The position numbers and the translations under genes are program-made. This document shows, one piece after another, positions 1,687 to 28,296 of a DNA stretch of 64,000 nucleotides. Under the pieces are notes generated by a model that did not search any database, was not told where the DNA came from, and saw nothing but the letters and a program-made list of their open reading frames with translations. Source of the stretch: Cyanophora paradoxa CCMP329. Lineage: Eukaryota; Plantae; Glaucophyta. How positions within the stretch are numbered: the first letter of the stretch is position 1; every line of letters begins with the position of its first letter. The stretch is from positions 310,001-374,000 of the forward strand of contig QPMI01000533.1 of the NCBI GenBank assembly GCA_004431415.1, read 5' to 3'.

Positions 1687-1804
1687 TGCCCGGAAGGAAC
1701 TTGTTCACGATGCCGTCCATGTCGGCCTTCAGGTCGTTCTTCAGCGACTGGCGCTGCTTCTTAGAGCCCTCCCCAATGTCCATCATAGAGTGGCCCTTCG
1801 TCAT
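1687..1804 (-). pseudogene. 5' stub of a viral gene truncated by the retrotransposon
   Basis: ATG 1804 gives MTKGHSMMDIGEGSKKQRQSLKNDLKADMDGIVNKFLPG and then reads into the element. It has virus-like GC3 codon usage and the shared upstream AAATTTTC motif. Confidence 0.6.
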
Positions 1805-1883
1805 CGCGCCTCGGTTAGGATCCCAGTGGGAAAATTTATTGGTTCACATCGGCCTACCAAGCACACCCTGGCTAACAAGCAAT

Positions 1884-3254
1884 CTAATGGAAGCGGCGGT
1901 AGGCGCCGCCGTTGGTGAAGGTGATCTCGTTGTAGTAGCGGCAGTAGATGTCGGCCACGGGCTTGTCCGCGCCGTAGGTCTTGAGCGTGGTGAGCGTGAG
2001 CTCGATGGTCTTGAAGGCGCCCATGTCGAGGCCGCCGAACATCTTGGTGTTGTCGGCCACGTCCGTGCCGAAGGGGAGCGAGTAGATGAACTCCGTCCCG
2101 AACTGGCCCACGTTGCGGGGCTGGATGTCGCTGCTGTGCCCGTCGTGGGTCGCGAGGGTCGTGGGGGGCGTGTCGTTGCCCGACCACGGGTGCGGGTGCA
2201 GCGCGTCGGCCACGTCGGCCGCCGCCGTCCCGTCCATCGAGGTCACGCCCCGCAGCAGCTCGAGGTGCTTGCGCGCGGGGGCGTGCGTGTGCTCCTTGTG
2301 CGCGATGGCCGTGCGAAGGAAGTGCGCGTCGTGGTTCGAGCTGTCGAGCACCTTGATGTTGTCGCACTTCAGCTCGATCTTGTCGAGCGGGCGGAAGCGC
2401 CAGAAGTGCTCGCCGTTGTCGGTGTGCGGCTTGTCGCGCACCACGATGATCAGCTCGTAGCAGATTCCGGTGAAGGGCAGGCGGATGGCCTTGCCCGACT
2501 CGAACGAGACGTGGTAGTGCTGCACGTACTTGCCGGCCCACGTGAACGAGTTCGGGTGCAGCGCCAGCTCGCGCGAGTCAATGTGCACGTAGCGCAGGAT
2601 GAGCTTGGTGTCCAGGCTGACGGTGCTCGTCAGGTTGGTGTTGGTGTGCAGGCCGCCGTCCACGTACGAGGCCGTGATCTCCTTCTGCGAGGCGTAGGTG
2701 ATCTGCAGCTTCATGTCGTTTCCGGAGCAGCGGAGCTTGTGGAGCGGCACGGCGAACTTTCGACCGTGGCCCGTCGCGATGCGAATCGGTATGTACAGCG
2801 TGTTCGGGGCCTTGCCCCGGCGGCGCAGCGGCTGGTGCGCCCAGAGGTTGTTCACCATGTCGACGTGCTGGACGACGGACTTGTCGTCCTCGAACTCGCC
2901 GTAGATGGCGTCGTGGTGGCCGGTGTACTCGTGGATCAGCTGCGCGCCCACGAAGATCTTCACGTTCTTGAGCAGCACGTAGCCGGCCTTCGGGATGTAG
3001 AAGTGGTCCGCGTTCGTCAGCGCCGGCAGCGTCACCTTGAGCCAGGAGTCGTTGAACATCGGCGCCGAGTGCGGGATGACGATGTCGACGGTCTGGCTGA
3101 AGCTCACGCCCGACTGCACGGGGCTCACCTCGAGCACCTCGTCCACGAACGGCATCGCCGTGTCAAAGGTCTCGTGCACGTGCACCGACGCGTCGGAGCT
3201 GCGCAGCGAGTGGTGCAGGGCGGTCGTGGGGGTGGAGATGAGCGCGGAAGCCAT
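1884..3254 (-). CDS. MCP: Major capsid protein, NCLDV-type double jelly-roll (456 aa)
   Basis: Motif series of NCLDV MCPs: SFSQTVDIVIP..FNDSWLKVTLPAL; GYVLLKNVKIFVGAQLIHEYTG; TLYIPIRI..FAVPLHKL; FIYSLPFG..FGGLDM..IELTL; YCRYYNEITFTNGG. Confidence 0.88.
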   Translation of the reverse strand: MASALISTPTTALHHSLRSSDASVHVHETFDTAMPFVDEVLEVSPVQSGVSFSQTVDIVIPHSAPMFNDSWLKVTLPALTNADHFYIPKAGYVLLKNVKIFVGAQLIHEYTGHHDAIYGEFEDDKSVVQHVDMVNNLWAHQPLRRRGKAPNTLYIPIRIATGHGRKFAVPLHKLRCSGNDMKLQITYASQKEITASYVDGGLHTNTNLTSTVSLDTKLILRYVHIDSRELALHPNSFTWAGKYVQHYHVSFESGKAIRLPFTGICYELIIVVRDKPHTDNGEHFWRFRPLDKIELKCDNIKVLDSSNHDAHFLRTAIAHKEHTHAPARKHLELLRGVTSMDGTAAADVADALHPHPWSGNDTPPTTLATHDGHSSDIQPRNVGQFGTEFIYSLPFGTDVADNTKMFGGLDMGAFKTIELTLTTLKTYGADKPVADIYCRYYNEITFTNGGAYRRFH

Positions 3255-3296
3255 GGTGGTTTAGGGGTGCGTTGAGAAAATTTTTTGGGTGGACGC

Positions 3297-5267
3297 CTAC
3301 GTTATTAGAGAGCGCGCCCCCCGTCTCGCTAGGTCCGCGTCGTACGCCTTCTTGCGGAGTGCGTCCGTGATCGCAGACCAGTCGCGTGTGCCGTTAAGAT
3401 AACCCAGGGCAAGTCCTTGGCCCAACATGAAGTAACGCTCTGGGTCCAAGTTCATGAGTTGCTGGGCCCGCTCCTCTACGCGCCGCACACGCTCCATAAA
3501 GGGGCCCTTTGCCGCAGATCCGAGCGGGTCCGCTTCTCGCTCAGCTTCGAAGAATTTCACGACATCCCCGCCCAGGTCCGAAATATCACGGTGCTGCTCT
3601 GCTATCCGTGCCTGTGCCTTGTTGACTCCAGCTGCCTGGGCATGGGCTATCGATGCCAGTTGGTTGTAATCGATTTCTTCTGCAAGGTATTTCGCAACGG
3701 CGGCGTCCCCTGCAGCGCGCGCGATTTCGGGCGATACGCTCACAAGGAATCCCTCCCGGCGAGCCCGATTGGCCGCGCGCTCCGCTTCCGTCTCCTCGTC
3801 CATGGGATCGTCTGGACTGGCTGGATTGCCTGGAGCACCGGAGCGAAGTTTCTTCAGCAGCCCCGCACGGCGAGCTTCTGTCGCCTCTTTCACCTTCTTG
3901 GCGGCCAGTTCAAGCGCATCGTTTACGTCCATGGTCGCATACCCGGGTCTCCGCCCCATATCCTTGTACGCGGCCCTGCGCTTGTCCATGGCTTCCTTCT
4001 CGCGCGGGGACGAGGGGGCGATTTCTATCCCCGCGTTTGCGAGTTGAGCCTGGACGGCGACGGGCACCTGCTCGAGCACGGCCCTTGCCGCCGCAACAGC
4101 CACCGCCTCGGCCGCCACCACCTCTGGCGGGCGCGAGGGCCCCGCCTGCGGCTCGGGTGGCGGCGGGGGCGGCGGTGGGGGTGGAGGCGGGGGCTGCTGC
4201 TCCGCTGGGGGCGCCGACGACCGGGCCACCGTGTCCGGGGGCTGCGAGGGGCCGGGCTGCGGCTGCAGCGGTGGCGTCTTCGGCCCGGGGGGCGGAGGCG
4301 GCGGAGGCGGAGGCCCCGGAGGCGGGGCCCCCCCTTCGTCGTCGGAGTCTGACTCGATCATTTCGTCTCTGGGTTCCTTGGACGGTAGGGCCTTCTGAAT
4401 GAGGGCCTCGCGCGCGCCCTTGCCCGCCTTGATTGCTCTGCCCATGGCCGCCTCCGGGAAACTGGCCTCGATGGCCTCGTTGTCCCCGTCCGTGATGCGC
4501 ACCTTCTGCTCGCGGCGGGCCTTGATGTACTTTTCCTTGTCCATCCGCTTCTTCGCCCGTCGCCTCTCCCTGGGCACGTCGCGCTGGCGGCTCTCGTCCG
4601 GCCCCGGCCCCTCGCTGTCCGAGCTCGAGGGCGGCTCGGCCTGGGCGAAGGGCTGGCGCGTGTTGCGGTTCGCGTAGTCGGGGTCGTACCTCCCTCCGAT
4701 CAGCTCCTCGGGCTTCTTGTTCTCGCGCGCGTAGATGCTCGTGGGCTTGAACTCCTCGCCGTTGATGATGTACTTGTAGTAGTAGTACGCATCCTCGAGG
4801 TTCATCGGCCCCAGCGTCTCGAGGCGCTTCTTGCGCTTCAGGAATTCGGTGATCTGATCCTCCTTCGACTTGCAGAACTCCCGCACGCCCGGCAGCACCG
4901 TCAGGTTCTTGCCGTCCACGTCGCAGGCGCCCGCTCCCTTGGCCTTCAGGTTCGCGGTGAAGGCCGACTGGCCCATCAGCCAGGCGCGGAAGCCCTCCTC
5001 GTACTCCTCGTCGAGGCTCGACTCCATCTGCTGGAACTTGTTGATGTAGTACGCGTTGGCGATGGCCTGCGCCTCCACCTCGGCGAGCTTGTCCGATTGA
5101 TCGCGCTCCTCGAACCGAATTTCCGGCGTGGCCCTCGCCAGCGCCGTCTTCATCAGCTGCTGAAAGTGCGCGTACTTGTCGCTCTCGAAGGGCGTGATGT
5201 GCGAGTCCCCGCCCCCCGGGATCGCGAGCACGTTGCGCGGCGCGAAACGCGAGGCGAGCCCCCTCAT
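3297..5267 (-). CDS. Viral protein with globular N-terminal domain and Pro-rich linker (656 aa)
   Basis: Long ORF with viral codon usage. N-domain FRAWLMGQS..LPGVREF..GPMNLEDAYYYYKYII, followed by poly-Pro tracts. Function unknown. Confidence 0.8.
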   Translation of the reverse strand: MRGLASRFAPRNVLAIPGGGDSHITPFESDKYAHFQQLMKTALARATPEIRFEERDQSDKLAEVEAQAIANAYYINKFQQMESSLDEEYEEGFRAWLMGQSAFTANLKAKGAGACDVDGKNLTVLPGVREFCKSKEDQITEFLKRKKRLETLGPMNLEDAYYYYKYIINGEEFKPTSIYARENKKPEELIGGRYDPDYANRNTRQPFAQAEPPSSSDSEGPGPDESRQRDVPRERRRAKKRMDKEKYIKARREQKVRITDGDNEAIEASFPEAAMGRAIKAGKGAREALIQKALPSKEPRDEMIESDSDDEGGAPPPGPPPPPPPPPGPKTPPLQPQPGPSQPPDTVARSSAPPAEQQPPPPPPPPPPPPPEPQAGPSRPPEVVAAEAVAVAAARAVLEQVPVAVQAQLANAGIEIAPSSPREKEAMDKRRAAYKDMGRRPGYATMDVNDALELAAKKVKEATEARRAGLLKKLRSGAPGNPASPDDPMDEETEAERAANRARREGFLVSVSPEIARAAGDAAVAKYLAEEIDYNQLASIAHAQAAGVNKAQARIAEQHRDISDLGGDVVKFFEAEREADPLGSAAKGPFMERVRRVEERAQQLMNLDPERYFMLGQGLALGYLNGTRDWSAITDALRKKAYDADLARRGARSLIT

Positions 5268-5542: not shown

Positions 5543-5544
5543 GT

Positions 5545-6159: not shown

Positions 6160-6385
6160 TTCTCAATTTGGGGAGGGACTTAGAAATACTGCCCGTGAGC
6201 TCCCTGTCGCGGATCCTGCGAAAATCCGCGAAGAGCCCGCGCGCGCAGCGCCTGCAGACGAGGCGGGCCCGCCCGCCCACGCGCGCCACCGAGATCTCGT
6301 GGCCGAACTGCAGGTGGCCCGGGAAGCAGGTGGGGGGGTAGTCGCAGACGAAGCAGTGGCAGGGGCAGTTGCGCCGCCGGATCAC
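6137..6385 (-). CDS. Possible small Cys-rich zinc-finger protein (start uncertain)
   Basis: CPCHCFVCD...LVCRRCARG fills the gap between genes; only a GTG start was found. Confidence 0.4.
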   Translation of the reverse strand: MIRRRNCPCHCFVCDYPPTCFPGHLQFGHEISVARVGGRARLVCRRCARGLFADFRRIRDRELTGSISKSLPKLRNGLPAVR

Positions 6386-6777
6386 ATCTGAATTGCAATC
6401 GCGGGCTCGCTCGCCGCCTTCCTCGGCGCGCGCTGGCGCTTGGGCTGGGCCTCGAGCGGGCTCGGGTCGCCCTCCGCGGGGGCCGCCTTGGCCTTCTGCC
6501 GGGGCGCCGCGGGGGGCTTCGGGGCCGTAGGGGCTGCCGGTGCCTGGCTCGAGCCGGCGGCCGGGCCAGCGGCGTCGGTCACCTGCGGGCGCTGCGGCGG
6601 CGGGCTGGTCTCCCGGGCCCCCTCCTCGAGGACCCGGCGCATGAAGCGCGAGACGCGGCCGCTGCATTGCGTGCAGGAGCCGACGGCCACCTGGCGGTTG
6701 TTCTTGCTGGTACGCACCTCGACGTTGGCGAGCTTGGTGTTGGAGCGGCACTTGAAGCAGTAGTGGGCGTGCTCCAT
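6382..6777 (-). CDS. DUF5679-like zinc-ribbon protein
   Basis: YCFKCRSNTKLANVEVRTSKNNRQVAVGSCTQCSGRVSRF follows the DUF5679 pattern (YCxKC..TKNGR..GxCxxC). Confidence 0.8.
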   Translation of the reverse strand: MEHAHYCFKCRSNTKLANVEVRTSKNNRQVAVGSCTQCSGRVSRFMRRVLEEGARETSPPPQRPQVTDAAGPAAGSSQAPAAPTAPKPPAAPRQKAKAAPAEGDPSPLEAQPKRQRAPRKAASEPAIAIQM

Positions 6778-6978: not shown

Positions 6979-7455
6979 TCACACCGGATTGAGCGCGGCG
7001 TAGAGCGCGATCAGGTAGGCGTCGCAGAGGTCGTCGAGCTTGCCGTTTCGATCCGCGATGTCGGCGAGCTCGGCGGGTACGAGGTCGCGGCACTTGTCCA
7101 CGGCGCCCCGCTTGCGCTCCTTGTAGCTCGGGTTCGAGATCTTGAAGAAGTGCTTGATGGCGCGCGGGCTCACGATCCGCGCACGCCCGTACAGGAGGGC
7201 GTGGAGCGTGCACTCGATGCAGCGATTGATTCCCGTCCTCTGGCCCTCGATCGCGATCTGGTCGGGAAGGCCGAAGGCGCTATGGCCGCGAGTAACCTCC
7301 ACCAGGCGCGCCACAAGGCGGCCACAGCAGCGCGCAGACGGGAAGAGGGCGATCTTCTGCCAGTCGAGAATCTGGGATTCCTTTGTCTGCGGATCGAATT
7401 CGATGAGGCACCATGCGAAATTGATGACCCCCACATCCACGCCGAGGATCTTCAT
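6979..7455 (-). CDS. RuvC/poxvirus A22-like Holliday junction resolvase (158 aa)
   Basis: MKILGVDVGVINFAWC (Asp I), IAIEGQ (Glu), SYKERK, KLDDLCDAYL (C-terminal Asp pair). Confidence 0.9.
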   Translation of the reverse strand: MKILGVDVGVINFAWCLIEFDPQTKESQILDWQKIALFPSARCCGRLVARLVEVTRGHSAFGLPDQIAIEGQRTGINRCIECTLHALLYGRARIVSPRAIKHFFKISNPSYKERKRGAVDKCRDLVPAELADIADRNGKLDDLCDAYLIALYAALNPV

Positions 7456-7492: not shown

Positions 7493-8563
7493 ATGGCCAA
7501 AGACCCCAAGAAGCCGAAGAAGCCGAAGGCGGCCAAGCCCCAGCCCGCCCAGCCCCAGGGCGCCGCCCCGGCCCCCGCCCCCGCCGCGGGCCAGGCCACC
7601 GGCACGGGCGCGGGCACGGCCCCCGCCGCCGGCGCCAGCTGCGCCATGGGCATGACAGAGGACGGCCAGCAGCTCACGCCCGAGCAGGTCAACGCCTTCC
7701 TCGACAACTCGAAGACGGGCGGCATCGAGCGCATGGCCTGCCTGCCCGAGCTCAAGTGGTTCGACGTGAACACCGTCAAGTCCGATGCCACGGTCGTCTG
7801 CGTCGGCAAGCGGCGCACGGACAAGTCCTTCTTCCTCCGCGATCTCATGTTCAACCTCTCGGGCACCTTCCCGGGGGGTATCGTGATCAGCCAGACCGAT
7901 CGCCTGAACGGGTACTGGAAGCAGTACATCCCGCAGCGCTTCATCTGGCCCAAGTACAACCCGGGCGTGCTCTTCCATTTATTCAGGAGGCAGCAGGCGA
8001 TCATGCAGCACAACAAGTCCGAAGACGTGCTCGCGGGAAAGGAGGATCCCGTCGACCCGCGATTTTTCGTGCTGCTCGACGACGTGATTTCCGACGCTCG
8101 GCTGCGGTACGACGAGGCCCTCAACGAGCTCTTCGTGGCGGGGCGCCACTACAAAATCATGACCCTTATCACGACGCAGTATGCCAAGGGCATCAATCCC
8201 GTCCTGCGCTCCAATACTGATCTGGCTGTCATTTTCAAGTGCTCGCAGGCGATGCAGCGCGAGGCCCTCGCAAAGGAGTGGGGCGACATCATATCCCAGC
8301 GCGCCTTCTACTACCTGCTCGATAAATACACGCAGGATAACCACTGCCTTATCATCGATTCTTCCAACAACTCTACGAACCCTCTGGACGTCCTGTACGT
8401 CTACAAGGCCGAGGAGCCGCCCCCGTTCCGAATCGGATCCAAGGAGTACTGGGAGGGCGAAACCGTCAACGGGGAAAATCTCGTGGGTCCGGACGACGGC
8501 ACGGTGGACAAGACGCTCCTCGGCATGATAGATAATTTCAGGAAGCACCGCGGCCTCGCCTGA
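7493..8563 (+). CDS. A32-like (FtsK/HerA) genome-packaging ATPase; Walker A has G>D
   Basis: VVCVGKRRTDKS, GIVISQTD..YIP, FFVLLDDVI (Walker B), LFVAGRHYKI..TTQY..INPVLRSNTD. Confidence 0.92.
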   Translation: MAKDPKKPKKPKAAKPQPAQPQGAAPAPAPAAGQATGTGAGTAPAAGASCAMGMTEDGQQLTPEQVNAFLDNSKTGGIERMACLPELKWFDVNTVKSDATVVCVGKRRTDKSFFLRDLMFNLSGTFPGGIVISQTDRLNGYWKQYIPQRFIWPKYNPGVLFHLFRRQQAIMQHNKSEDVLAGKEDPVDPRFFVLLDDVISDARLRYDEALNELFVAGRHYKIMTLITTQYAKGINPVLRSNTDLAVIFKCSQAMQREALAKEWGDIISQRAFYYLLDKYTQDNHCLIIDSSNNSTNPLDVLYVYKAEEPPPFRIGSKEYWEGETVNGENLVGPDDGTVDKTLLGMIDNFRKHRGLA

Positions 8564-8976: not shown

Positions 8977-9321
8977 ATGTCAAAGGTGCTCCTAGGGCTC
9001 TCCCAGGCCATCGTGCAGTACGCCCTCGGCCTGGCATCCGGCTCCCTCATCGACGCCGCCTTCTCCTCGCACGAAGGCGAAAACAGGGCCGGCCACGCGG
9101 CCGAGCTCGCCGCGCAGGTCGCCGTCAACGGCCTCTCCCTCGGCCTGCTCTCGAAGTACGTGCTCACCCTCAAGTTCTTCGACGACGACCCCACGGGCGG
9201 AATTATGTTCATCCTCGGATTTACACACGGGCAGACGAACATGCTAATCAAGGCTACCAGCGCTAGCTTCGGAATCAAGCAGGCGCTCGAGCGGAAGGCC
9301 GCCGCGATCACTAAAGAGTAG
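8977..9321 (+). CDS. Putative virion membrane protein
   Basis: 114 aa, three hydrophobic or amphipathic segments, DPTGGIMF motif. Confidence 0.65.
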   Translation: MSKVLLGLSQAIVQYALGLASGSLIDAAFSSHEGENRAGHAAELAAQVAVNGLSLGLLSKYVLTLKFFDDDPTGGIMFILGFTHGQTNMLIKATSASFGIKQALERKAAAITKE

Positions 9322-10152
9322 CTAAAGAGTAGGAAAGAAATGCCAGTCGTTGTACTCGCATATCCTGTTCCAAATGGAATCCAGCTCCGAGAGTTTCTGC
9401 CTGCTCTTGAGCAAGGGGAAAAAGGGGAGGTGCTGGGGCAAATCTAGCAGCACGAAAATCTGCCTGAAGACGTAGTTGTAGTTGAGCATGTTCTTCCTGC
9501 CCTGCGACTTGAAGATGCTGAAGGGGACCTCCACCAGGGCGAACATCTCCTGCACCCGGTCCATGTCCTCCGCGCTCATCGGAGGCGGGCGCTCGCCCGT
9601 GATGCGCCACTTGATCTGCGCCCAGCGCTCGATGTACTTCTGCTGCTTCAGAGCCCGGAGAACTTGGCGGATATTGTCTTTGCTCCACTCCTTCCCCGCC
9701 ATGCGCCTCGCAATAGCTGCCAGCACGTCCTCGGGTACTGGAGAATCCTCCAGGCAGTGCTGCTTAAGTCGCTCAGATACGTGGTACTTCCGCAGGTAGT
9801 TGCTGTGGAGCTCGCTGACAGCCAGGGGTTGATGGTCCGGATAATAAAAATCCAGGACCAGACCGCAGCCTTGGCAAACCAGATCCCCATCCAGGTGAAC
9901 ACCAACGAGGGCGGTAGAGCCGCAATTTCCGCAGGGGACAGCGGCTTCGCCTTGGGGGCCTTGGGTGCGGCGGTTGCGCTTGCGGGGGCGCTCTCCGGCC
10001 CCGAGGTAGGAGTTGGCGATGGCGGCGGCGGCGGCGGGGTACGGTGCCGGAGTGTCGAAGTCTGGGTCCCCCTCGTCGTGAAGGATGGCGCCGTAGCGCT
10101 GGATCTGCTCGAAGTTTCGGAGGAGGAGATCGATTTCGCCAGAGTCTGCCAT
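9322..10152 (-). CDS. VLTF3: Viral late transcription factor 3 (VLTF3, poxvirus A2-like)
   Basis: Zn ribbon CGNCGS..VCQGCG, YLRKYH..ERL, and the diagnostic RKNMLNYNYVFRQIFVLL..LPFFPLLKSRQKL..DSIWNRICEYNDWHFFPT. The start could be further upstream. Confidence 0.93.
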   Translation of the reverse strand: MADSGEIDLLLRNFEQIQRYGAILHDEGDPDFDTPAPYPAAAAAIANSYLGAGERPRKRNRRTQGPQGEAAVPCGNCGSTALVGVHLDGDLVCQGCGLVLDFYYPDHQPLAVSELHSNYLRKYHVSERLKQHCLEDSPVPEDVLAAIARRMAGKEWSKDNIRQVLRALKQQKYIERWAQIKWRITGERPPPMSAEDMDRVQEMFALVEVPFSIFKSQGRKNMLNYNYVFRQIFVLLDLPQHLPFFPLLKSRQKLSELDSIWNRICEYNDWHFFPTL

Positions 10153-10383: not shown

Positions 10384-11226
10384 ATGCTCAACCTCATCGC
10401 GAGGGGCGTAGCAGCAAACAGGCAAGCCCGGGCACCGAACCCTCACCTCCGCATGGACGCCTCCGGCCGCTCCCGGGTAGAGACGCACATCGTGGTGGGC
10501 AACATCAACGACAAGGTGCTGGCGCCCGACAAGACGTGGTTCCAGAAGGTGCTGGACGCGGCGCCCGTGAGGAGACTGAACGGAGAGGATCGGCCCCAGC
10601 GCGAGTCGAATTTCATGATCACCATCCAGACCAACTACAAGCCGCGGAGCAGGGGAGAGGGCGCCAAGGTGCAGGACGCCTTTTACAGGGGGCTGGAGGC
10701 CCTCTTCTACGACGACAGGCAGCTGGCGCGGTGCATAAAGATGGGGGTGTACCCCGACAAGGCGAACCCCAAGGGCTTCGATTTCAAGTCCGACCAGTAC
10801 GACACGCACGTGGAGAAGGGCAACGCGAACATCGGCATCGAGTACGGGCCGCGGTCGGGGCGGCTCCACGCGCACATCCTGCTCACGCTGGTGCACTACT
10901 CGCGCGTGCAATTCGACGGCAAGCGGGCGTCGGATTTCCTCATCGATTTCATGCGGACGGAGGGGCAGGGCGGCCTGCCGAATTTCTACAAGGACGACTG
11001 GTTCGGGGAGGAGTACCAGAAGACGGCGGTGCGGCCGATACGGAGAAAGGACGCCCTCGGCATGCAGTGGACGGGCAAGGAGACGGGCTACAGGAAGCGA
11101 GAAACCGCCAGGCAGATGCACGTAGACGTGAAATTGCTGCCTCAGAGCAACCTCAAGGATCTGCTGCAGCTGTACATTACGAAGACGGTAGAGGCCCTCG
11201 AGACGGGCGCTGTAAAGCTCGTGTAA
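10384..11226 (+). CDS. HUH endonuclease (Rep-like), short form (280 aa)
   Basis: Motif I-like SNFMITIQTN, motif II IEYGPRSGRLHAHILL, motif III LQLYITK. Confidence 0.85.
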   Translation: MLNLIARGVAANRQARAPNPHLRMDASGRSRVETHIVVGNINDKVLAPDKTWFQKVLDAAPVRRLNGEDRPQRESNFMITIQTNYKPRSRGEGAKVQDAFYRGLEALFYDDRQLARCIKMGVYPDKANPKGFDFKSDQYDTHVEKGNANIGIEYGPRSGRLHAHILLTLVHYSRVQFDGKRASDFLIDFMRTEGQGGLPNFYKDDWFGEEYQKTAVRPIRRKDALGMQWTGKETGYRKRETARQMHVDVKLLPQSNLKDLLQLYITKTVEALETGAVKLV

Positions 11227-18100: not shown

Positions 18101-20399
18101 CGACAGGCGCGTGATGGGCGACTCGGACGTTATTTTGCGCAACGCCCTGATGCCCTACGGCGACTGGAACCGCGCCACCGCCGACGCCCTTGCGGATTTC
18201 GACCTCGAGCGATTCACCACCAAAGAGCAGCGCGACGCGTACCTGGGGCGCCCGAGGGCAAGGCGGCCCGGGGTGGCCAAGGAGGCCCTCAGCGCCGAGA
18301 CGCTCTTCTCGGCGGCGGGTACGGCGAACAACGACGGCATGTCTTTCGGGGCAGCCGATTTATTTCAGGGGGCGGGCATCGACCTGGTGGGCGCCGGGCT
18401 GGGGGGTACGGGCTCGCGTGCCATGCGGCGGGCGGGCGCGGCGGCGGCGGGCCTTGGGCTGGCGACGGCGGGCGGCCTGCTCTCGGCCTACCAGGCGCTC
18501 TCGCAGGGCAAGATAGGGGAGGCGGAGTTCTTCGATACGTTCCGCGATCAGATGATCATGACGGTCGGCTCCTTTGGCCTGCAGACGGGCATGTCGTCCG
18601 CCCTGAGCGCCCTCACGAAAATGAGGATCGGCACGGTGGGCGGACTTGGCCTGTCCATCCTCGCGGGCGCCATCGCGCAGGTGATCGTGGATATCATCAA
18701 CGGGCGCAGCGCGGAAGAGATCGTGAAGAACTTCTTCAAGTACCCCGTTGACTGGGCCGCCGACACCATCCAGTTCATCGCGCAGCTCTCGCAGCAGATC
18801 TACGACTGGGGCGTCGAGACGTGGGGCGACGAGGCGAGCCAGCTGCGCAACCGAATTAATCGGCTGGAGGGCGAACTGGGCTCCGGATTTTTGGGTGTGT
18901 ACGACCCCTCGGAGGCGCGCGAAATGGCCTCGCTCTTGGCCCAGGAGCTGCGGTTAAACGAAATAAAGGAGCCGAAGGAGCTGCAGGCCTTCATTCGCGC
19001 GCTCGACAACAGCATCAACGATTACCGTACCCCCAAGGACCAGAAGACTCTGCTCGAAATTGATCGCGCAACCGTGCTCTTCCTCTCTCAGCTCACCGTT
19101 AAAATGCAGGAGGGCTTCGGGTCGACCTCGCTCGCCCTGAGTCGGCTGATGCGCGACCTTAAGCAGATGGTGAAGGAGGAGACCAAGGGGCGGAAGCGCG
19201 TCTTAATAGCCGTCTACCAGGAGGGCCTCAACAGGATCAATCACATCGAAGCCCTAAGGCGCGAATTCGGCTCGGCCATCCGTCACTCGGGCGTCTCGTC
19301 GAACGGAGGGGCCCAGGTGGCCCGCCTGGCCGACGCTAACTCGCGCCTCGAAATTCCCGGGACCTTCCGCATGCAGGATTGGTGGGAGGCCGAGGCATTC
19401 AGGAACTACGGCGCCTTCATAGACAACGGGATCAATTCGCAGAGCCCCAAGGCCAACTGGCTGGTACCCAAGGCGTACGTCGATAAATTGATGGACAGGC
19501 CCGCGGCACCCTACAGCAAGAAGATCGCCAAAGGCGTAGAGTACTGGGCGCCCGAGCCCGGTCAGCCCGTGTTTGCGGCGCAGAACTACGAGTGGCACGT
19601 GCCCTCGGGGCCCAGCCAGGCCATCAGTACCGTGGGGGTTGCCGCGCCGCAGCTGGCGGCGGTTGCGCATACGGGGGAGTACAAAGATTTAAAAGGGAAG
19701 CCGGAGACGACGTGGGATAGCATCACGGGGAAGCCGAGCACGTACCCCCACGCAACTCACAGGCACACCATCTCCGAGATCAGCGACTGGACGGCCCCCA
19801 ACTTGACGAACATCACCGTTGACTGGGAAACCCAAGTTACGGGGAAGCCTCTCGCCTTCCCCCCCACGACCCACAGTCACGCCGTGAACTGGAACACAGA
19901 TATTTACAACTTACCAGGCACCTTCCCCCCCTCTACGCACAGTCACACCGTGGACTGGAATACAGATATTTCAAACTTACCAGACACCTTCCCCCCCTCT
20001 ACGCACGGCCATTCCCAGTACGCTGATGCCGACCATGGCCACAGAAACGTGAACATGTCAGATGCTTACGTGCAACATGGCACCTTCTTGTACACGTTCG
20101 CCTCAGGCACTTATTTGGATAGCAACTTTGCGTACACGACCACGTTTACCAACATTCCTTTCGCGACTGCGTACGACACAGGAGGTGGACTCTATCCCGC
20201 AAACCCCACCCCAACCGTAATACTTACCCCATTCTTCGTACTTGGCAGCCAGGAAGTTGAGATCGGGGCCCGCCTCGTCGCGTTAGACCATACCAAATTT
20301 ACGGCCAAAGTGAGGATGAAGCCCTCGGTGTCAGTCACTATTACCGACCATGTACCGCTCAAGCTCCATTGGATTGCAGTGGGCAAGCTGGTCATATGA
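15161..20399 (+). CDS. Giant fibre-like protein (~1,745 codons), split by at least 4 frameshifts in this sequence
   Basis: Five overlapping ORF segments give HxH repeat, Gly linker, coiled coil, Gly/Ala hydrophobic block, phage-fibre repeats (WDSITGKPSTYPHATHRH; W..DI.NLP.TFPPSTHSH) and an H-lectin/gp53-like end (IPFATAY..PTVILT..LHWIAVG). Confidence 0.7.
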
Positions 20400-20423: not shown

Positions 20424-21251
20424 ATGTCCGTTGCTGTCCCTCTGTTCACCTACGCTGCCAGCGTGAATCACAAGGGCGATCACACGATCAAGGAAACCAC
20501 CCTCGGGGATCAGGCCACCGAGACCCCCTACAACGCCACGGCCGTCCCCTTCACCGAGGCCGACCTGGTGCGAGTGGGCGAGCTGCGCTGCGATAAGATG
20601 CGCACGCGGGAGGGTGGGCCGGCCGTGCCGGGGCGCGTGAAGACGCAGAGGCTCACCGTCACGAACGGGTCCTGGGATGGGACGGGTCACACTACGAACA
20701 CCATAACTCATAACCCCGATGCGGACGGAGAGGGGAACTCTGCACTTTACGTGCATACAGGGGGCGCAAACGTGGTAGGGGGGCTCAGGGTCAACGGGAC
20801 CGTCACGGTGGTTTCTGGGCACCTTCGAGTCGCTTTGCACCCTTTCTTCTGCGCGGCCATGATAGCGGATTTCACACCAGCGAGCGGCAGAATCCTGGGC
20901 GTTTGGCAGAATTCTGCAAACTCGGGTGCATGGGACGGAAGCACGGGGCTGTTCACCAGCCCCGTGACTGGGTACTACCGGTTTACGTTCACCGGAATCG
21001 CAGATTGGATCGGGGGAGTTCGGACAACCGTACAGCTGTACGTGAACGGATCGGCGCACGCCAACCCTCTAATCAGCGCGCACACAGATGGGGACCCGGA
21101 CGCGCCACAGAAATACAGACATATAGGATTCAATGCTATCGTCTACATGGTCGCCGGATGGACCGCGAACCTGCACCTGGCGATCGGGAAATTGTATGGA
21201 TCGTCCAAGGGGTACACATTCTTCACAGGCGAGCTTGTACAGGCCACCTAA
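20424..21251 (+). CDS. C1q-domain protein (putative spike/adhesin)
   Basis: AWDGSTGLFTSPVTGYYRFTF..VQLYVNG..YTFFTGELV follows the C1q consensus. Confidence 0.85.
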   Translation: MSVAVPLFTYAASVNHKGDHTIKETTLGDQATETPYNATAVPFTEADLVRVGELRCDKMRTREGGPAVPGRVKTQRLTVTNGSWDGTGHTTNTITHNPDADGEGNSALYVHTGGANVVGGLRVNGTVTVVSGHLRVALHPFFCAAMIADFTPASGRILGVWQNSANSGAWDGSTGLFTSPVTGYYRFTFTGIADWIGGVRTTVQLYVNGSAHANPLISAHTDGDPDAPQKYRHIGFNAIVYMVAGWTANLHLAIGKLYGSSKGYTFFTGELVQAT

Positions 21252-21258
21252 GAGCGTC

Positions 21259-23136
21259 TCATCGCACAAAGGCTAAAATGCCCCCGTTGGCATTCTTGAA
21301 ACCAGTGTGGGGGGAGATCGCACTTCCGTTTTCGCCCCAGAGAACTTGGGCGGAGTCATGGCTCGAGGAAGTCGTGATCCACGGATCTTCGGGAGATGCA
21401 CTGCTGGTGCGGAACAATACATTTGCGTACGTGTTAGCATTCGGGCTCCCAAAATTAGCGGACGATCCCGATACGAGAACAGACCTTCCCGGCAGCTCGG
21501 AAGGATAAACCACTTCGGATAGGGGGAAGTACATGTAGTAGGTTCCATTCCCAGTTCGGAAGAGGATGTCGGACACAGCGGGACCGGCCTGTAGCGTGTA
21601 GTTTCGCCAGTAGGTCCCAACTTCGCCGGTGGTGCTGTAGGTGCTGTTACTCGCGAAGGAGAGGCCAGACCAGCTGACTTTTCCTGTATCAAACGTCGAA
21701 AAGCCACCGGAAGCAGGCTGTGCTGCAAACGACATCCAACCGCCCCCGCCGATGGTCATGTTGCAGTAGATGTCCTGAAGGGTGCCGTTTGCCAGGCGGA
21801 ATTTGTACGTCCCGTCGCCAAGGGTCGTGTTCACGGCCTTCAGCTGCGTGGCGTTCTGCGAGTAGCACGTGATTGCAGAGGACGACGAGGCGGGGCCCTC
21901 CTCGCCCACGATGTTGACGGCCTTGACCATATAGCTGTACTCGGTGATGAAGAGGGTCACGCTGTCGGTGAAAGGGCTCGAAACGTTGTGTCCGACTTTC
22001 GTGCTCCCCCTGTAGACGTTGTAAGACGTGGCCGTGCCGGTGGCCGGGGCCGTCCAGGTGACGGTGACATTGGGCGAGGCCGCAGAGGGCTGCGCGGTTG
22101 ATATGGTTGCAGGCGCGGCGGGGTCTGTGGTGACGTACGTCGCAATACTCTTCGGTCCCTCCCCTCCCGAGTTCGTCGCGGAGACCTGGTACTCGTACCC
22201 CGTACCCCAGATCGTGGTCGCGTCGCTATAGGAGTTGGTCGCGGAGTCTGCGAGGTAGGCCCCGTCCCTGTAGATCTTGTACCCCGTCGCCCCCGTTGGC
22301 GCCGTCCAGCTGAGGCTGACGGGCTGCTCTATGTCGTCGGGCGCAGTCGCCGTCACGTTCGTGGGCGCGTTCGGCGTCGTCCAGACCGGGAGCGGATCGG
22401 ACTTTTCGTATTCGACCCCGCCCACGATGCCGGCCACCTGGTAGGAGTACTCCGTACCCCACGCAAGGGCAGTGCTATCGTCGATGTACGAGGTAGCTAG
22501 GGCGCTGCTTGCGAATCCGATAGGGGTGCCGTCTCTGTAAATTCGAATCGAGTCCGCGCCCTCCATGGCCACCCAGTTGATTGTGACGACGATGGCGGGT
22601 ATCGGGAAGCCGGAAGACGCGGGGCCGCCCCCGGCAATAAAATCGCCGTAGGTCTGGGCCGTGGCGGTTGTGAGCGTGGTGTACGCCTCGATCTGAGGGT
22701 TGAAGCCGCTCAGGCCTTGGAAGAGAATGTAATTGCTTGTAGTGCCCTCGTGCGTGTAGAGAAGCGACTGTGCGTAGGTTGTGGGTGGGGCTTTGCCATC
22801 GGAGCCCGTGCTGCTGCTGCCCTGCTCGCGAACCGCGGCCACCCGGTAGAGACGTAGCTCGCCAAAATTAAAGGGCGTGTCCGTGTACGTGAGCGTGGGG
22901 GCGTTCACAGTGTTCACCAGCGTCCAGGTGCCATTGAGGCTCGTCGCCCTGTACACCTTGTACTTGACGGCGTTGGTGACAGCACCCCAGTTCAGTCGAA
23001 ATCCGTAGGTACCGCCCCCGTTGTTGAGCACGGAGCCCGATCGCACCTGGGGCCTGCCCACAGTGAGCGAGATCGGCTCCACGCCGTACTGCGGAGCCTG
23101 CACCACCTGCTTTCTCACGAAAACGAAGCGGGGCAT
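21259..23136 (-). CDS. Fibronectin type III repeat protein with fibrinogen-like C-terminal domain (625 aa)
   Basis: About four FN3 units (LSWTAP..YKIYRDG..YSD..YEYQVSATN..EG) and DGTYKF..DIYCNMTIGGGGW. Confidence 0.88.
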   Translation of the reverse strand: MPRFVFVRKQVVQAPQYGVEPISLTVGRPQVRSGSVLNNGGGTYGFRLNWGAVTNAVKYKVYRATSLNGTWTLVNTVNAPTLTYTDTPFNFGELRLYRVAAVREQGSSSTGSDGKAPPTTYAQSLLYTHEGTTSNYILFQGLSGFNPQIEAYTTLTTATAQTYGDFIAGGGPASSGFPIPAIVVTINWVAMEGADSIRIYRDGTPIGFASSALATSYIDDSTALAWGTEYSYQVAGIVGGVEYEKSDPLPVWTTPNAPTNVTATAPDDIEQPVSLSWTAPTGATGYKIYRDGAYLADSATNSYSDATTIWGTGYEYQVSATNSGGEGPKSIATYVTTDPAAPATISTAQPSAASPNVTVTWTAPATGTATSYNVYRGSTKVGHNVSSPFTDSVTLFITEYSYMVKAVNIVGEEGPASSSSAITCYSQNATQLKAVNTTLGDGTYKFRLANGTLQDIYCNMTIGGGGWMSFAAQPASGGFSTFDTGKVSWSGLSFASNSTYSTTGEVGTYWRNYTLQAGPAVSDILFRTGNGTYYMYFPLSEVVYPSELPGRSVLVSGSSANFGSPNANTYANVLFRTSSASPEDPWITTSSSHDSAQVLWGENGSAISPHTGFKNANGGILAFVR

Positions 23137-23175
23137 TTTCCTCTACGGTCCGAAAAAATATCTGCGCCGGGGTAA

Positions 23176-23853
23176 ATGACTTCCAACTGGTACCAGACCC
23201 TCAACGCCCTGGACGCCGGCAACAACACCAAGGATTTCGCGCGCATCCCCTCCGGCAGTTACGTCGACGTCTTCCTGCAGAATCCCGTCGTGATTCAAGC
23301 CGTTCAGAACGCCTACGCCACGCCCAAGATCTACTCCTACCAGCTCTTCTTCGACCCGTCCACTCTCAGCGCAGAGGTCATTGAGCTGCTCCACGAATCC
23401 GGCCTCGTGAAAAGGGTGGCGCCCGCCACGGCCACGGCCAACGTCCTGCGCTGTCTCGAGGTTAAGTTCAGGGAGACGGGGTACGGCCCCACCGTGAACC
23501 AGCACACGGATACCAACCTGCCGGGTACGGGTGCATTTACTGCGCGGGGTACGCTCAAGGGCGACGTGCTCTTCACGAAATTCAACCCGAGTCCCGCGAC
23601 CCTGGGGGCCCTCTACACGGGCGGCAATCCGCGCGCTTCCGGGCTACCCCGCTTCCCCTTCACCTTCTTCAAGTTCCAGGTCTTCCCCCTGCCCTACGCC
23701 GCCGACCAGCCCCACTTCAGCACGGGCGCCAGCCTCTGCGCGGAGCTGCGCGAGTGCTCGATTTCCTACAGGCACACCACCGGCTCCGACGCCGTGCAGC
23801 CCGCCGCCCGCCTCTCGGGCATCGGCAACGACATCGCCCTCTTCTACGGATAA
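23176..23853 (+). CDS. Uncharacterised viral protein, paralog A
   Basis: 225 aa; colinear similarity to the next ORF. Confidence 0.75.
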   Translation: MTSNWYQTLNALDAGNNTKDFARIPSGSYVDVFLQNPVVIQAVQNAYATPKIYSYQLFFDPSTLSAEVIELLHESGLVKRVAPATATANVLRCLEVKFRETGYGPTVNQHTDTNLPGTGAFTARGTLKGDVLFTKFNPSPATLGALYTGGNPRASGLPRFPFTFFKFQVFPLPYAADQPHFSTGASLCAELRECSISYRHTTGSDAVQPAARLSGIGNDIALFYG

Positions 23854-23876
23854 TCTTTCTCATCCGAGGTCGCAAA

Positions 23877-24662
23877 ATGCCTTCCACCTCCGGCACCATC
23901 GTGAAGACCGTGCTGCCCACCCCCGATTTCTATGGCGATGCCGTTGCGGCGGCCAACGCCGGGACGGATTCCGTGGTCTGGGACGGCAGCTACGCCTCCA
24001 TGCTGACCGTGAAGATCCAGAATCCGATCATGCTGCGCGTCACCTCCAACGATTTCGAGAATCCCGCCTCCTGCTCCGTGTACGTGTACTTTGACATCGA
24101 CTCGGGCGTGAGCGCGGACGAGGCGGAGGCCCTCTGGCTCTCCGGCCTCCTGAAAAAGATAGAGCCCTCTGTGCCGGATCGGCCCGCGATTCGCGTGCTC
24201 GAGCTCAAGTTCACTGCGAACACCGCCCTCACCCGCACCTTTAACGGCGGCTCCAAGACCCACATAGACGGCGCTGCCATTGACGCCACGCACAAGACCA
24301 CACAGGCAGTCCCCTTCGAAATGTACAATCTCTGGAAGATGACCGCAAAGGAAATGATGACCAACGCAACCACAGGCGGCTCGTCAGGTACTGCCTCTGC
24401 TTTCGACTCCTCGAATCCCCGTACCCAAGTCTGGCCCCGGCTCCTCTTCACGAAATTCACTTTCCGTCTGTTCAACAACATCGCCGGAATGCCTACCTCT
24501 GGAATGGTCGTGGGCTCTACTCTCATGGCTGAGCTGATCGAGGCGGAGGCTGACTACACGACTGCCACCACCAACCTTGCCAACGGCACCGCTACGAACT
24601 ACGTGGCCTGGAGCACGATTGACCGCGAGTACGACACTAAGATTCACACCACTAGCGTCTAG
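23877..24662 (+). CDS. Uncharacterised viral protein, paralog B
   Basis: 261 aa; QNP..D..SA..L..SGL.K...P..LE.KF..NPR..PR..FT.F.F..SL.AEL.E shared with paralog A. Confidence 0.75.
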   Translation: MPSTSGTIVKTVLPTPDFYGDAVAAANAGTDSVVWDGSYASMLTVKIQNPIMLRVTSNDFENPASCSVYVYFDIDSGVSADEAEALWLSGLLKKIEPSVPDRPAIRVLELKFTANTALTRTFNGGSKTHIDGAAIDATHKTTQAVPFEMYNLWKMTAKEMMTNATTGGSSGTASAFDSSNPRTQVWPRLLFTKFTFRLFNNIAGMPTSGMVVGSTLMAELIEAEADYTTATTNLANGTATNYVAWSTIDREYDTKIHTTSV

Positions 24663-25017
24663 ACTGGCTAAGCTGCACTAGTGCCTGCGCCGCCTCCATC
24701 ATCTCCGCAATCTCCTCGCTCTTCTCCTGTAAATTGGCGTACCCCCTCCTCTTCTTTCGAATCTCCGACATCGATGCCCAGCGCAGGTTCTCCCTCCTGT
24801 AGTCCAGCGGGTTGCCGTTGATGTGTTCCACGTAGCGTCCACGTGGCGACTTCCCGAGGATCAGCTGGGAGAGGTAGTGCTTGCGTCCTCCAAACGTCTT
24901 GCTCACCCTGTCCCTGTCCACTCTCCAGGGAAACTCCAAGGCACTCGGGGGTACGTCCGAGTTGACCAGGACGTTGTAGGCGACGTCTTGCGAGTCGGTG
25001 CACCGGAGCAGGGCCAT
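24652..25017 (-). CDS. HNH endonuclease-like protein (degenerate motif)
   Basis: YLSQLIL..VEHINGNPLDYRRENLRW versus the phage HNH consensus VDHINGN.LDNRR.NLR. Confidence 0.78.
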   Translation of the reverse strand: MALLRCTDSQDVAYNVLVNSDVPPSALEFPWRVDRDRVSKTFGGRKHYLSQLILGKSPRGRYVEHINGNPLDYRRENLRWASMSEIRKKRRGYANLQEKSEEIAEMMEAAQALVQLSQSRR

Positions 25018-25040
25018 TTTGCCCTAGGTTCGGAAAAACC

Positions 25041-25094
25041 TGGGACTTGGGACTTGGGACTTGGGACTTGGGACTTGGGACTTGGGACTTGGGA
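25041..25094 (+). repeat. (TGGGACT)x7.7 heptamer array
   Basis: Perfect tandem repeat read directly. Confidence 0.97.
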
Positions 25095-25519
25095 AGAGTT
25101 GAAACCCAGGTCCCGGCCCAGACTTTCTCCAGGATCAGAAATTTGTCAGACAAGTCAGGTGAGTTTTTCTACCGACTTTTTTACTCCTACCACCCCTCAT
25201 ACTCTTTTTTACTCGTAGTCTTTTTTACTCGTATCCCATCTCGTACCCTCCTTCTCTCGACATCTCGCACGAAAACTCCTACCCCTCTTCACATCCTTTT
25301 TCGGTTGCATACTCTCGTGAGCTTTCATGTCCAGTATCATGCTACAAGTCGTACACCAGTTCAGACTCTACCTCGCTTGAAATCTCACCTGGAATGTCAC
25401 CAGAAACGTCGTATCCAGAATTCCGTACCCCTTTCTAAGTCTGCCCGGTGGTTAGGGACTTGGTGCAGCAAACTCTCAGATCCGGAGAAAGTCTGGGCCC
25501 AGACCCTGAGTCTAACTCT

Positions 25520-25615
25520 TCCCAAGTCCCAAGTCCCAAGTCCCAAGTCCCAAGTCCCAAGTCCCAAGTCCCAAGTCCCAAGTCCCAAGTCCCAAGTCCC
25601 AAGTCCCAAGTCCCA
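25520..25615 (-). repeat. (TGGGACT)x13.7 heptamer array, inverted relative to the first
   Basis: (TCCCAAG)n on the + strand. Confidence 0.97.
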
Positions 25616-25688
25616 GGATCGCGCCAAGTCGTAACTGAATAGTCGGCCAATTTTTACAAGTATGTACAGTGGAATGACGCAATACTAT

Positions 25689-26741
25689 TTACAGCATCTC
25701 AAAATCAGAGTCATCATCGGAAACCAAGTCAATCGGTGCATCGGGCGCGGACTTAAGGGGAATGCGGGGAAGGGCCTGCGCTGCCTGCACTAAGTCCTGC
25801 CGCTCCTGCTCGCGCTGCGCCGCCAAGGCCGCTGCCGCCTCTGCCTCGCGCCGCTGCTGAGCCTCGACGCGCGCCCTAAGTTCCGCTGCCTCCTTCTTCT
25901 TGCGCTCGGCAATCTTGGCCAGCGTCATCTCGCGACGAAGAAGGCGCTCGTGACGCAACTTGCGCCGGAGTTCGGCCATTTCGCGCTTGGCGATGATGCG
26001 CTTCTCAATGGTCTTGACGTGCTGAGTCAGGCGCTCGGTGTAGTGTGACGTCACGCGAGAACGGGCAATGCCAGCGCCGATCTTCAAGTCTTTTTCGTGT
26101 TCCTTGGCGGGATTCTTGACTCGCTCGGAGTTGTCGGTGAATGACGTGGTCTCCATGAACTTCTTCTTGACGATTGACTTGGTCTTGATAATGCGGCGCT
26201 TGCGAGTCGGGTTTTCGTTGTCGCCTTCAGAGTCGGAAGAGGACTCAGAGTCGTATTGAATCGGCACGTCAAAGTCGATAAAGTCGTTGATGTCAGACTC
26301 GGCGTCAGAGGCCTCGGACTCGGCGTCATCGGCGGGCTCAGGGGCGGGCTCGGCGACGGGCTGAGGGGCAGATGACGACGATGACGGAGGGGGGAAATTC
26401 GTGAAGACTTGAGGGGGATAGGCCCAGGCGAGCGTCTCGGCGGCAGACTCGGCGAAAAGCTTGGGGTCGCCCCAGCCAGTGGGAGTCTTGACCCAGCCGG
26501 GGACGGGGGGCACGTCGACGGGCTCGGGCTTGGGCTCGGGCTTGGGTTGCTTGGACTTGGGCAGAAGGGAGGATACAAAGTTGAGGTTGATGGTATGGAA
26601 GCCTTCTCCGCTGTGAGCTTGGTAGAGGTACCCCAGCTTGCGGGCACGCTTCTCCATTTCACGGGTAGGCCAATCGCGGGACTTAGCCCACATCTCACGG
26701 GCCTTGGCAAGGTCCTCGACAAGCTCAGAGGGAATCGACAT
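25689..26741 (-). CDS. Hypothetical viral protein (350 aa; Pro-rich, acidic, coiled-coil)
   Basis: Long ORF; ATG 26741 directly follows an intron-like segment. Confidence 0.7.
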   Translation of the reverse strand: MSIPSELVEDLAKAREMWAKSRDWPTREMEKRARKLGYLYQAHSGEGFHTINLNFVSSLLPKSKQPKPEPKPEPVDVPPVPGWVKTPTGWGDPKLFAESAAETLAWAYPPQVFTNFPPPSSSSSAPQPVAEPAPEPADDAESEASDAESDINDFIDFDVPIQYDSESSSDSEGDNENPTRKRRIIKTKSIVKKKFMETTSFTDNSERVKNPAKEHEKDLKIGAGIARSRVTSHYTERLTQHVKTIEKRIIAKREMAELRRKLRHERLLRREMTLAKIAERKKKEAAELRARVEAQQRREAEAAAALAAQREQERQDLVQAAQALPRIPLKSAPDAPIDLVSDDDSDFEML

Positions 26742-27081
26742 CTGCGCAAAGGGAAGAGAGATCAGCAAAGGCAAAACGTGAGGTGACTGAGAGAGCGGAC
26801 TTGTGAAAATTCGGAGAGGCGGGGATTCCTTGGGCTGAGAGAAGGCGGCGAACCCGTTTCAAGAGTGAGCCAAAATGGCGGCGGACCGCGGTTTTGTGGG
26901 CGATTTTTTTCGCGGTCTAGTTCGCAACGGAAAACGTTGCCAACTGGCCTGAAAAAAGCCAAATTTAGCGTTGGGCCGAAGGCAGAAAAAGGGAGCCGGC
27001 CTGACGGAAATCGCCCGAGTGCGTCCGCCGAAGGTCGAGTCTCGGGCCGGGGGTACACCCTCAGGGGCCCCCCCTGGCCCC

Positions 27082-27552
27082 TCACCCTGGTAGTGCCCTC
27101 TCAAAGGGATTTTCGAAGCCGTACAATTCTTGGTAAGTCTCGTAATCCGGGCTGTACCCCCTCACAATCTGCGGGAGCCCCATTGAAAGCCTCCGTCTAT
27201 CCTCTCTCAATTCCCTGCGGAAAAGTCTACGGTCTTCTCGAGCTTCGCGCGTCACGCCAGCTGGGCGTGGTCTATGATTGTTAGGGTTGTCGTAGCCTGG
27301 CCCCACCAGCCTCACGAAATTTTCGCGTATGGCCTCGGGGAGACTCTGGAAACGGTTCGTCGTGTGGAACGCAATCCATTCATTGAATCGGCGCGGATAT
27401 TGACGGATGACTTCAAGCACGCCCTGTAAGTTGGGCTCTGGTGTTACGTCGGGGATGTCATGTCCCGTGAGGTGCCAACGCCAGAACTCGCGCAACCTCT
27501 CGAATGCCATATGCAACTCAAAGGGAAAATCGTAATAGAGATTGCCTGACAT
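27082..27552 (-). CDS. Hypothetical viral protein (156 aa)
   Basis: ATG 27552 preceded by the AAATTTTCG motif. Confidence 0.6.
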   Translation of the reverse strand: MSGNLYYDFPFELHMAFERLREFWRWHLTGHDIPDVTPEPNLQGVLEVIRQYPRRFNEWIAFHTTNRFQSLPEAIRENFVRLVGPGYDNPNNHRPRPAGVTREAREDRRLFRRELREDRRRLSMGLPQIVRGYSPDYETYQELYGFENPFERALPG

Positions 27553-27609
27553 TTTTCTCCCCGTCCGAAAATTTCCCCGCTTTTGAGTCCAGACTCTGAT
27601 TCCAACTCT

Positions 27610-27663
27610 TCCCAAGTCCCAAGTCCCAAGTCCCAAGTCCCAAGTCCCAAGTCCCAAGTCCCA
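27610..27663 (-). repeat. (TGGGACT)x7.7 heptamer array, third copy
   Basis: (TCCCAAG)n with the same AACTCTT...TCCCAGG flanks. Confidence 0.97.
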
Positions 27664-28296
27664 GGTCCCATTTTTCTCCCATTTCAGCCCGAGATTTTGC
27701 CCAAGTCCAAATCCGGACCCGGGATTCGAACCCTCGTTTTCGATCGATTTCACGCGTGAAAAACGCACTTTTCGGCCTTTTCGCATTTATTTTCTCTACC
27801 CCGGCCCAAAATGGACCCCCTCCCCGAAATCGCGATCGAAAATGGTCGCGATCGTCTCGTTTTCGCGATCGTCGTGATCGGAATCGTCATCGCGATCGTC
27901 GCGATCATGGTGATCACCAGCCTCGTCTACGGTACCCCCCAGCTGTGACCCGGAGGTTATAAGAACCTCCGCAATCCAAGCGTCACTTCCGAGTCTCGAG
28001 CTCTCGGAGTTGACTTTTCGCGTTTGGCCCATTGTTGGCCCTCATATATATATATCATATTCCGATTTCGAAGTTCGGTCTGATCATGACAGATATCGAT
28101 GGAAGAACAGCCAATACAAATCGGATCGGGAAGCTCAGCCGGCCGTGTCTCCGAAGTGTCCGCTTGCGTCTTAAGTAATTGGGTATAGCTTAGTGTATAT
28201 GTGTTTGTAGAAACCCGTCGACGTCACATGTAGAAACTAAAGCACCTGCGCCGGCGATCGCTTGATGAGATGGCGGAGGGTAACAGCGGCGTTTCA

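Follow-up and report, generated by a model that had tools for sequence, protein, structure and literature searches.

How does a dwarf relative of the giant viruses come to lie in the genome of an alga, when viruses of its kind are reported without integration genes? The question is raised by a stretch of 64,000 nucleotides from the glaucophyte Cyanophora paradoxa CCMP329 (contig QPMI01000533.1, positions 310,001 to 374,000), here called the window, whose own numbering is used throughout. The window contains an endogenous virus, visible from 1687 to 28043 (26.4 kb), that is dense in genes, intronless, and continues leftward past an inserted element and out of the window. We compare it with the mriyaviruses, which are proposed to be the nearest living kin of the ancestor of giant viruses and are mostly known from metagenomes. 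Our best explanation of the whole locus, held tentatively and with slightly less than even confidence, is a damaged copy of a multicopy virus that is related to Gamadviridae and inserts at AT repeats, most likely by HUH strand transfer. With about 30 near-identical copies, a defined end and an apparent AT target in a cultured alga, mriyavirus integration becomes directly testable. What we attribute to PMC11253617, PMC10288648, 10.1101/2025.04.19.649669 and 10.64898/2026.06.19.733378 refers to passages of these sources.

Affinity of the virus

A Pfam scan of 31 open reading frames (ORFs) in the visible 26 kb detected major capsid protein (MCP), A32, RuvC-like A22, VLTF3, HNH, DUF5679, C1q and fn3 domains, and found no polymerase, integrase, helicase or protease domains among them. 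As a reference we used 80 IMG/VR loci kept for their match to an ATPase profile; these are gamadvirus-like, and two accessions are identical to entries in Table S1 of PMC11253617. Profiles of these loci match the ATPase, VLTF3, RuvC, HUH, HUH_long, c6, c3 and MCP of the window, as well as c13 in a sibling copy (P0003), whereas the remaining 24 of 32 profiles had no convincing match. The MCP, A32 ATPase, VLTF3, RuvC and two HUH nucleases called in an earlier, sequence-only reading of this DNA (the original prediction) are confirmed by Pfam or by these profiles, the HUH pair at 1.7e-37 and 3.8e-20; the HUH profile had no match among solved structures.

The features of Mriyaviricetes that are present comprise a double jelly roll MCP, the A32 ATPase, VLTF3, HUH with intact motifs, RuvC, Mriya_1 and Mriya_51, the last two named by gene position relative to Table 1 of PMC11253617 and not by sequence. 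This is very probably a virus of Mriyaviricetes type. Its ATPase shares 38-47% identity with 18 gamadvirus ATPases, versus 27-30% with two giant-virus ATPases, and its VLTF3 scores at best 144 bits against gamadvirus-like loci versus 89 against giant-virus loci. The order ATPase (+), c6 (+), VLTF3 (-) is common to the window and the gamadvirus-like loci, and a short HUH gene followed by a long one on the same strand is found in six of eight maps of the gamadvirus HUH region. A weak DUF5679 match also lies beside HUH in gamadvirus loci. A structure model of the MCP (78-row alignment, pLDDT 81) best matches giant-virus capsids, that is, double jelly rolls of nucleocytoplasmic large DNA viruses (NCLDVs); its alignment is rich in NCLDV-like rows, which biases the ranking, so that the model supports the fold and not the nearest family.

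Searches for hallmarks of Polintons and Polinton-like viruses (PLVs), namely pPolB or a polymerase-helicase, an RVE or YR integrase, and a protease, found none in the visible part, and the VLTF3 and the type of MCP argue against these groups. Gamadvirus cluster profiles for ssb, PDDEXK, mCP and PEV_12/14/15/20/27/34/35 likewise had no match there. No matches were obtained for the window VLTF3 alone against IMG/VR, for the window MCP against phages, or for the family's ATPase against JGI metagenomes.

Trees were calculated for VLTF3 (51 rows), MCP (46) and ATPase (34), each from a subset of sequences that includes no bona fide Yaraviridae and no PLVs. In all three, the family sits on a long branch and falls neither within the gamadvirus clade nor among the giant-virus rows. 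Its split from classical NCLDVs is supported at 100/100 for VLTF3, SH 97 for MCP and 100/100 for ATPase (two outgroup rows), all subject to long-branch warnings; its position outside the gamadvirus clade is supported at 99/91, SH 99 and 96/91, respectively. In the phylogenetic check that the original prediction had proposed, MCP and VLTF3 do not group with the classical NCLDV rows sampled, in trees without PLVs. The prediction had also described the virus as Mriyavirus- or Yaravirus-like; the class holds, but the affinity, as far as tested, is with Gamadviridae rather than with Yaravirus. From these comparisons we read the family as a putative deep mriyavirus lineage that is nearest to Gamadviridae and, as sampled, probably not a member of it. 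One candidate "Yaravirus" locus (L001) carries the gamadvirus ssb cluster and joins the gamadviruses in the MCP and VLTF3 trees.

Copies in the alga and the shared viral end

All 15 matches of a word search with the MCP are EukProt proteins labeled Cyanophora paradoxa, and, the window aside, the MCP is carried by 29 named contigs, with fragments among them. Sibling gene numbers follow the window order, for example on tig00020824 from the MCP to the gene at 23877. Identity among siblings is 91-99% for HUH, RuvC, ATPase and the gene at 14188; their MCPs form groups of 92-99% and 59-66% identity. The genome of the alga contains a family of about 30 near-identical copies. Integration in a nameable host, as originally claimed, is supported, the near-identical siblings carrying the label of the alga. 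Four MCPs (P0005, P0008, P0032 and P0033) are 59-66% identical, yet their ATPases fall in the same 90% cluster (P0048, 98%), a contrast that suggests possible exchange of capsids between copies or rapid capsid evolution. Two ATPases that are 89% (P0086) and 80% (P0091) identical to that of the window, and a RuvC (P0388) on a contig equal in length to that of P0086, represent kin viruses outside the labeled proteome, from other samples.

The copy in the window is damaged, and its earlier description as largely intact fails on three counts: the c13 core gene is cut by the inserted element, the ATPase Walker A motif is mutated, and the region 15161-20399 lies in five overlapping frames, where the breaks may be genuine or may be assembly errors. 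The Walker A change, G to D at residue 110, is private to the window copy, whose motif is GKRRTDK; of 21 siblings, 19 have GKRRTGK and two lack the motif. Sibling P0003 continues the cut c13 gene, matches the c13 profile at 6.5e-9, and was the sole find when longer fused models of this gene were searched. Eight of ten window ORFs that were looked up, including four of the frame-broken pieces, are absent from the sibling protein collection.

To the right, the virus ends at 28043 rather than at 27971, the boundary first proposed, and directly next to it lies an AT run of 12 nt. Folding of its last 100 nt gives two hairpins (z -3.8; 0 of 200 shuffles). We aligned short-read contigs of four sequencing runs to 27680-30850; 20 runs, of one organism, contain 23000-30000. 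In all four, depth falls from thousands to single copy (40, 114, 41 and 114) past 28055. Relative to single copy, depth in run X11 is 18-22x at 27754-27984 and about 70x at 27955-28007, a terminal excess that is explained as well by similar ends on both sides of each copy as by many truncated copies with one end. Such summed contig depth gives only a rough idea of copy number. The contigs that leave past the end do so, in all 11 rows listed, at 28050, 28051, 28054 or 28055, after the first 7-12 letters of the AT run, and the flanks into which they exit differ among themselves (agreement 0.47-0.68 where pooled; up to eight contigs in run X3). The window has three AT runs of at least 8 in 64 kb, of which the junction run is the longest.

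In 4/4 runs a single-copy contig starts at 28021/28022 and reaches at least 30751, without alternative letters. By crossing the viral end, albeit below our 31-letter bridging rule, it supports the virus-host junction that had been proposed. Another single-copy contig of 8 kb, also present in 4/4 runs, contains only 27990-28055 (a 54-nt end piece), with five differences and, in the single row listed, ATATATA before it. This lone end piece flanked by AT runs, together with a shared end that adjoins different flanks, argues for targeted insertion, and we consider insertion targeted at AT runs likely. Two further candidates were rejected: a direct terminal repeat of 54 nt, which would not explain why high depth begins by 27955 and not at 27990, and a 19-nt hairpin match to one metagenome contig (L192) with no other likeness, which we took as chance.

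The adjoining right flank is single-copy and nonviral, with short GT..AG introns visible by eye at 37.5-40.8 kb, in agreement with the original picture of a compact viral block next to intron-rich host DNA.

How insertion might occur

In the visible 26 kb no integrase is found, which makes HUH strand transfer our best guess. The virus would replicate in the nucleus by rolling circle with the host polymerase, as PMC11253617 proposes for mriyaviruses. One of the two HUH endonucleases, both of which retain HAH and YxxK, would nick at the terminal hairpins and, as HUH transposases do, join the nicked viral end to an (AT)n tract, which melts easily; host repair or RuvC would then complete the insertion. 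Helitrons, IS91, IS200/IS605 and Replitrons are established users of HUH transposases (PMC10288648). We infer both the AT run as target and the joining by HUH from genes and ends, and a catalytic role for HUH seems to us a plausible but tentative proposal, with belief falling a little short of doubt. More doubtful is an extended version, in which an integrase-free, capsid-encoding relative of giant viruses uses HUH as a transposase at (AT)n microsatellites and represents a new family-level glaucophyte lineage of mriyaviruses, its HUH duplication splitting replication from integration.

Several points weigh against these proposals. In the visible 26 kb, five of 12 mriyavirus core genes went undetected: helicase (searched by Pfam only), PDDEXK, VLTF2, Mriya_48 and Mriya_50. 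The junction contig has 22-23 viral letters ahead of the AT run, and 26 further loose-end rows lie outside the 11 listed. No empty site occurs in the rows shown from short-read contigs of the four runs, and the AT run may be partly viral. The end is also readable as ...CA, the signature of retroviral integrases. Gamadviruses with the same HUH pair have mostly been encountered as free genomes; integration does not follow from the pair alone. Mriyavirus genomes measure 35-45 kb; the left arm outside the window could thus hold another 9-19 kb, possibly with room for an integrase, and related groups combine HUH with RVE or YR (10.64898/2026.06.19.733378).

This last point leads to the main rival explanation, which we regard as rather unlikely: the same virus and target, with an integrase or recombinase in the left arm acting on terminal repeats at both ends. 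With some 30 MCP loci, a terminal depth of about 70x comes close to two ends for each copy. Variant subterminal sequences after 27782 and ahead of 27951 could belong to the other arm, and the relatives Zora, VC134 and VC218 carry RVE or YR (10.64898/2026.06.19.733378). However, according to passages of the same source integration genes are absent from mriyaviruses, the visible part agrees in lacking an integrase, and the depth excess fits one-ended truncated copies, such as the lone 54-nt piece, equally well. It is quite improbable, in our view, that a viral end or circle junction brings its own AT tract, which host recombination or repair joins to host AT microsatellites with no dedicated viral enzyme. 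In its favor, at least seven AT letters are common to every listed junction, and RuvC could resolve such crossovers, but exit points range over 28050-28055 and the presence of about 30 near-identical copies points to an efficient mechanism.

Accidental capture on one or a few occasions, followed by host duplication or by carriage on another transposon that supplies the end, appears very unlikely. Flanks diverge right at the end, MCPs fall into groups of 92-99% and 59-66% identity, and the viral upstream motif and CCCAAGT array (see below) extend up to the terminal segment. These observations stand against a host flank with large duplications (23.4-kb and 1.9-kb repeats), a high-copy 90 nt that could be a separate small element, and the accidental insertion proposed for Nucleocytoviricota regions without mobility genes (10.1101/2025.04.19.649669). 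We give almost no credence to a free virus contig mis-joined to host DNA in assembly; the data are short reads only, and the best runs contain only 59-65% of sampled words of 23000-30000, but the single-copy contig across the end recurs uninterrupted in 4/4 runs. On balance we retain HUH strand transfer at AT repeats as the tentative explanation.

Other features and comparison with known systems

Features of the window are collected in Table 1. The proposed penton gene is unconfirmed, since searches with 14188-14637 in Pfam, PHROG and PDB gave no match; its best Atlas score, 0.86 to viral clusters, is a lead only. A 20-nt tandem repeat (3.1 copies, 15945-16005) lies in the region of the first frame break. 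The C1q-like and fibronectin-III genes have zero and one named siblings at 90% identity, versus 11-16 for their neighbors, and 20424-23136 is probably a variable host-recognition cassette. We infer that the inverted (CCCAAGT)n pair is a candidate origin or iteron; CCCAAGT is a telomere-like 7-mer. In a profile comparison covering ten of 16 unknown ORFs and half of an eleventh, no match to 41 gamadvirus clusters was found.

The motif [AT]TTT+C, picked by eye beforehand, occurs 10-45 nt ahead of 21 of 26 gene starts (1804-27811; three starts excluded from the count) versus 44 of 513 other ATGs, and may be a promoter element. In gamadvirus loci it precedes 41 of 78 c6 and 23 of 38 MCP genes, but one of 42 c14 genes, with no background rate there. 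AAATG is found at 13 of the 26 window starts.

In gamadvirus-like loci, c6 overlaps the VLTF3 3' end on the opposite strand wherever both are present (78/78 loci; 77-374 nt, constant frame offset). In the window the two genes abut without overlap, which suggests that c6 is a real gene and that the gamadvirus VLTF3 tail is its antisense. Table 1 of PMC11253617, within the passages used, has no c6 entry between PEV2 genes 24 and 25.

The left element was originally called a retrotransposon. A viral gene is indeed interrupted by it at 1687/1686, as sibling P0003 shows, but a Pfam search of 1..1686 gave no match; we assume that it is gag-like. In the right flank, a host gene with many short introns is duplicated at 37.2-41 kb and 60.5-64 kb (23.4-kb spacing, 90-98% identical); the copy at 37.5-42 kb may be NPHP4-like, which Pfam searches on fragments left unconfirmed. 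Ankyrin repeats occur at 54 kb, and three near-identical 1.92-kb tandem units at 51.5-57 kb encode ankyrin repeats.

Table 1. Positions and supporting matches of viral and adjoining features in the window
Feature	Position	Strand	Remarks
Inserted element	1..1686	-	Starts TGT at break; 505-aa ORF open at window edge
c13 core gene (Mriya_51 by gene position), first 39 codons	1687..1804	-	Cut by inserted element
MCP, double jelly roll, highly divergent	1884..3254	-	Pfam Capsid_N 1e-6
Conserved mriyavirus gene c3 (Mriya_1 by gene position)	3297..5267	-	Profile 7.7e-9; matches in 19 loci
DUF5679 zinc-ribbon protein	6382..6777	-	Pfam
RuvC-like resolvase (Pox_A22)	6979..7455	-	Pox_A22 5e-5; gamadvirus-locus profile 4e-16
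A32 packaging ATPase	7493..8563	+	Gamadvirus profile 2e-99
c6, 114 aa, between ATPase and VLTF3	8977..9321	+	Profile 3.5e-13; present in 78/80 gamadvirus-like loci
VLTF3 late transcription factor	9322..10152	-	3e-24
HUH endonuclease, short	10384..11226	+	HAH motif and YxxK present
HUH_long	11250..13280	+	HUH domain at C-terminus, with HAH and YxxK; extended N-terminus
Penton candidate, 149 aa	14188..14637	+	10 named siblings at 91-97% identity
Five overlapping ORFs, probably from one or two long, frame-broken genes	15161..20399	+	Last part tail-fiber-like repeats (phrog_14 9e-10)
C1q-like fiber/receptor-binding candidate	20424..21251	+	Varies between copies
Fibronectin-III repeat protein	21259..23136	-	Varies between copies
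Pair of paralogs (225 and 261 aa; 29% identity)	23176..24662	+	No family match; conserved in siblings
HNH endonuclease	24652..25017	-	HNH_3 1.8e-7
Inverted pair of (CCCAAGT)n arrays	25038..25617	.	Perfect arrays around 353-nt pyrimidine-rich spacer
Third (CCCAAGT)n array, subterminal	27570..27670	+	Perfect
High-copy terminal segment	27951..28043	+	Two hairpins, 8-bp and 6-bp stems
(AT)6 run at junction, likely insertion target	28044..28055	+	

Among known systems, Gamadviridae (Pleurochrysis endemic viruses and Phaglo-G; PMC11253617) share with the window virus the MCP, ATPase, VLTF3, RuvC, tandem short and long HUH, c3, c13 and c6, the ATPase/c6/VLTF3 order and a TTTC-type motif before gene starts. 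They differ in the length of HUH_long, which is 676 aa in the window but about 1,600-2,100 aa in gamadviruses, and the window virus lies outside their clade in three trees, has glaucophyte-labeled siblings and exists in about 30 integrated copies. Yaraviridae share the class-level gene set, as described in passages of PMC11253617, where HUH duplication is reported for gamadviruses only, whereas the window has an HUH pair.

Endogenous mriyaviruses are already in print at the class level, including in a glaucophyte: Figure 5f of 10.1101/2025.04.19.649669 presents Mriyaviricetes-related regions in a Glaucocystophyceae assembly. These probably belong to the same family as the window virus, although their ends, target, copy structure and HUH are not described in the passages concerned. 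By description, Zora (VC102), VC134 and VC218 (10.64898/2026.06.19.733378) are similar in having 20-30 kb and a mriyavirus-related capsid module, some with HUH, but they mostly carry RVE or YR together with Mriya48, and the passages give no VLTF3 or HUH pair. Our literature search, with most subscription journals outside its coverage, found no description of mriyavirus ends or of an AT target.

In their workings, HUH transposons (PMC10288648) are alike in their Y1 HUH motifs, a hairpin near the end and a short target preference. The likeness is one of mechanism, and the window element differs in encoding a full virion module. One published transposon reportedly targets TA microsatellites. What is new relative to all these systems is the defined end and the likely AT-repeat target of a family of roughly 30 copies.

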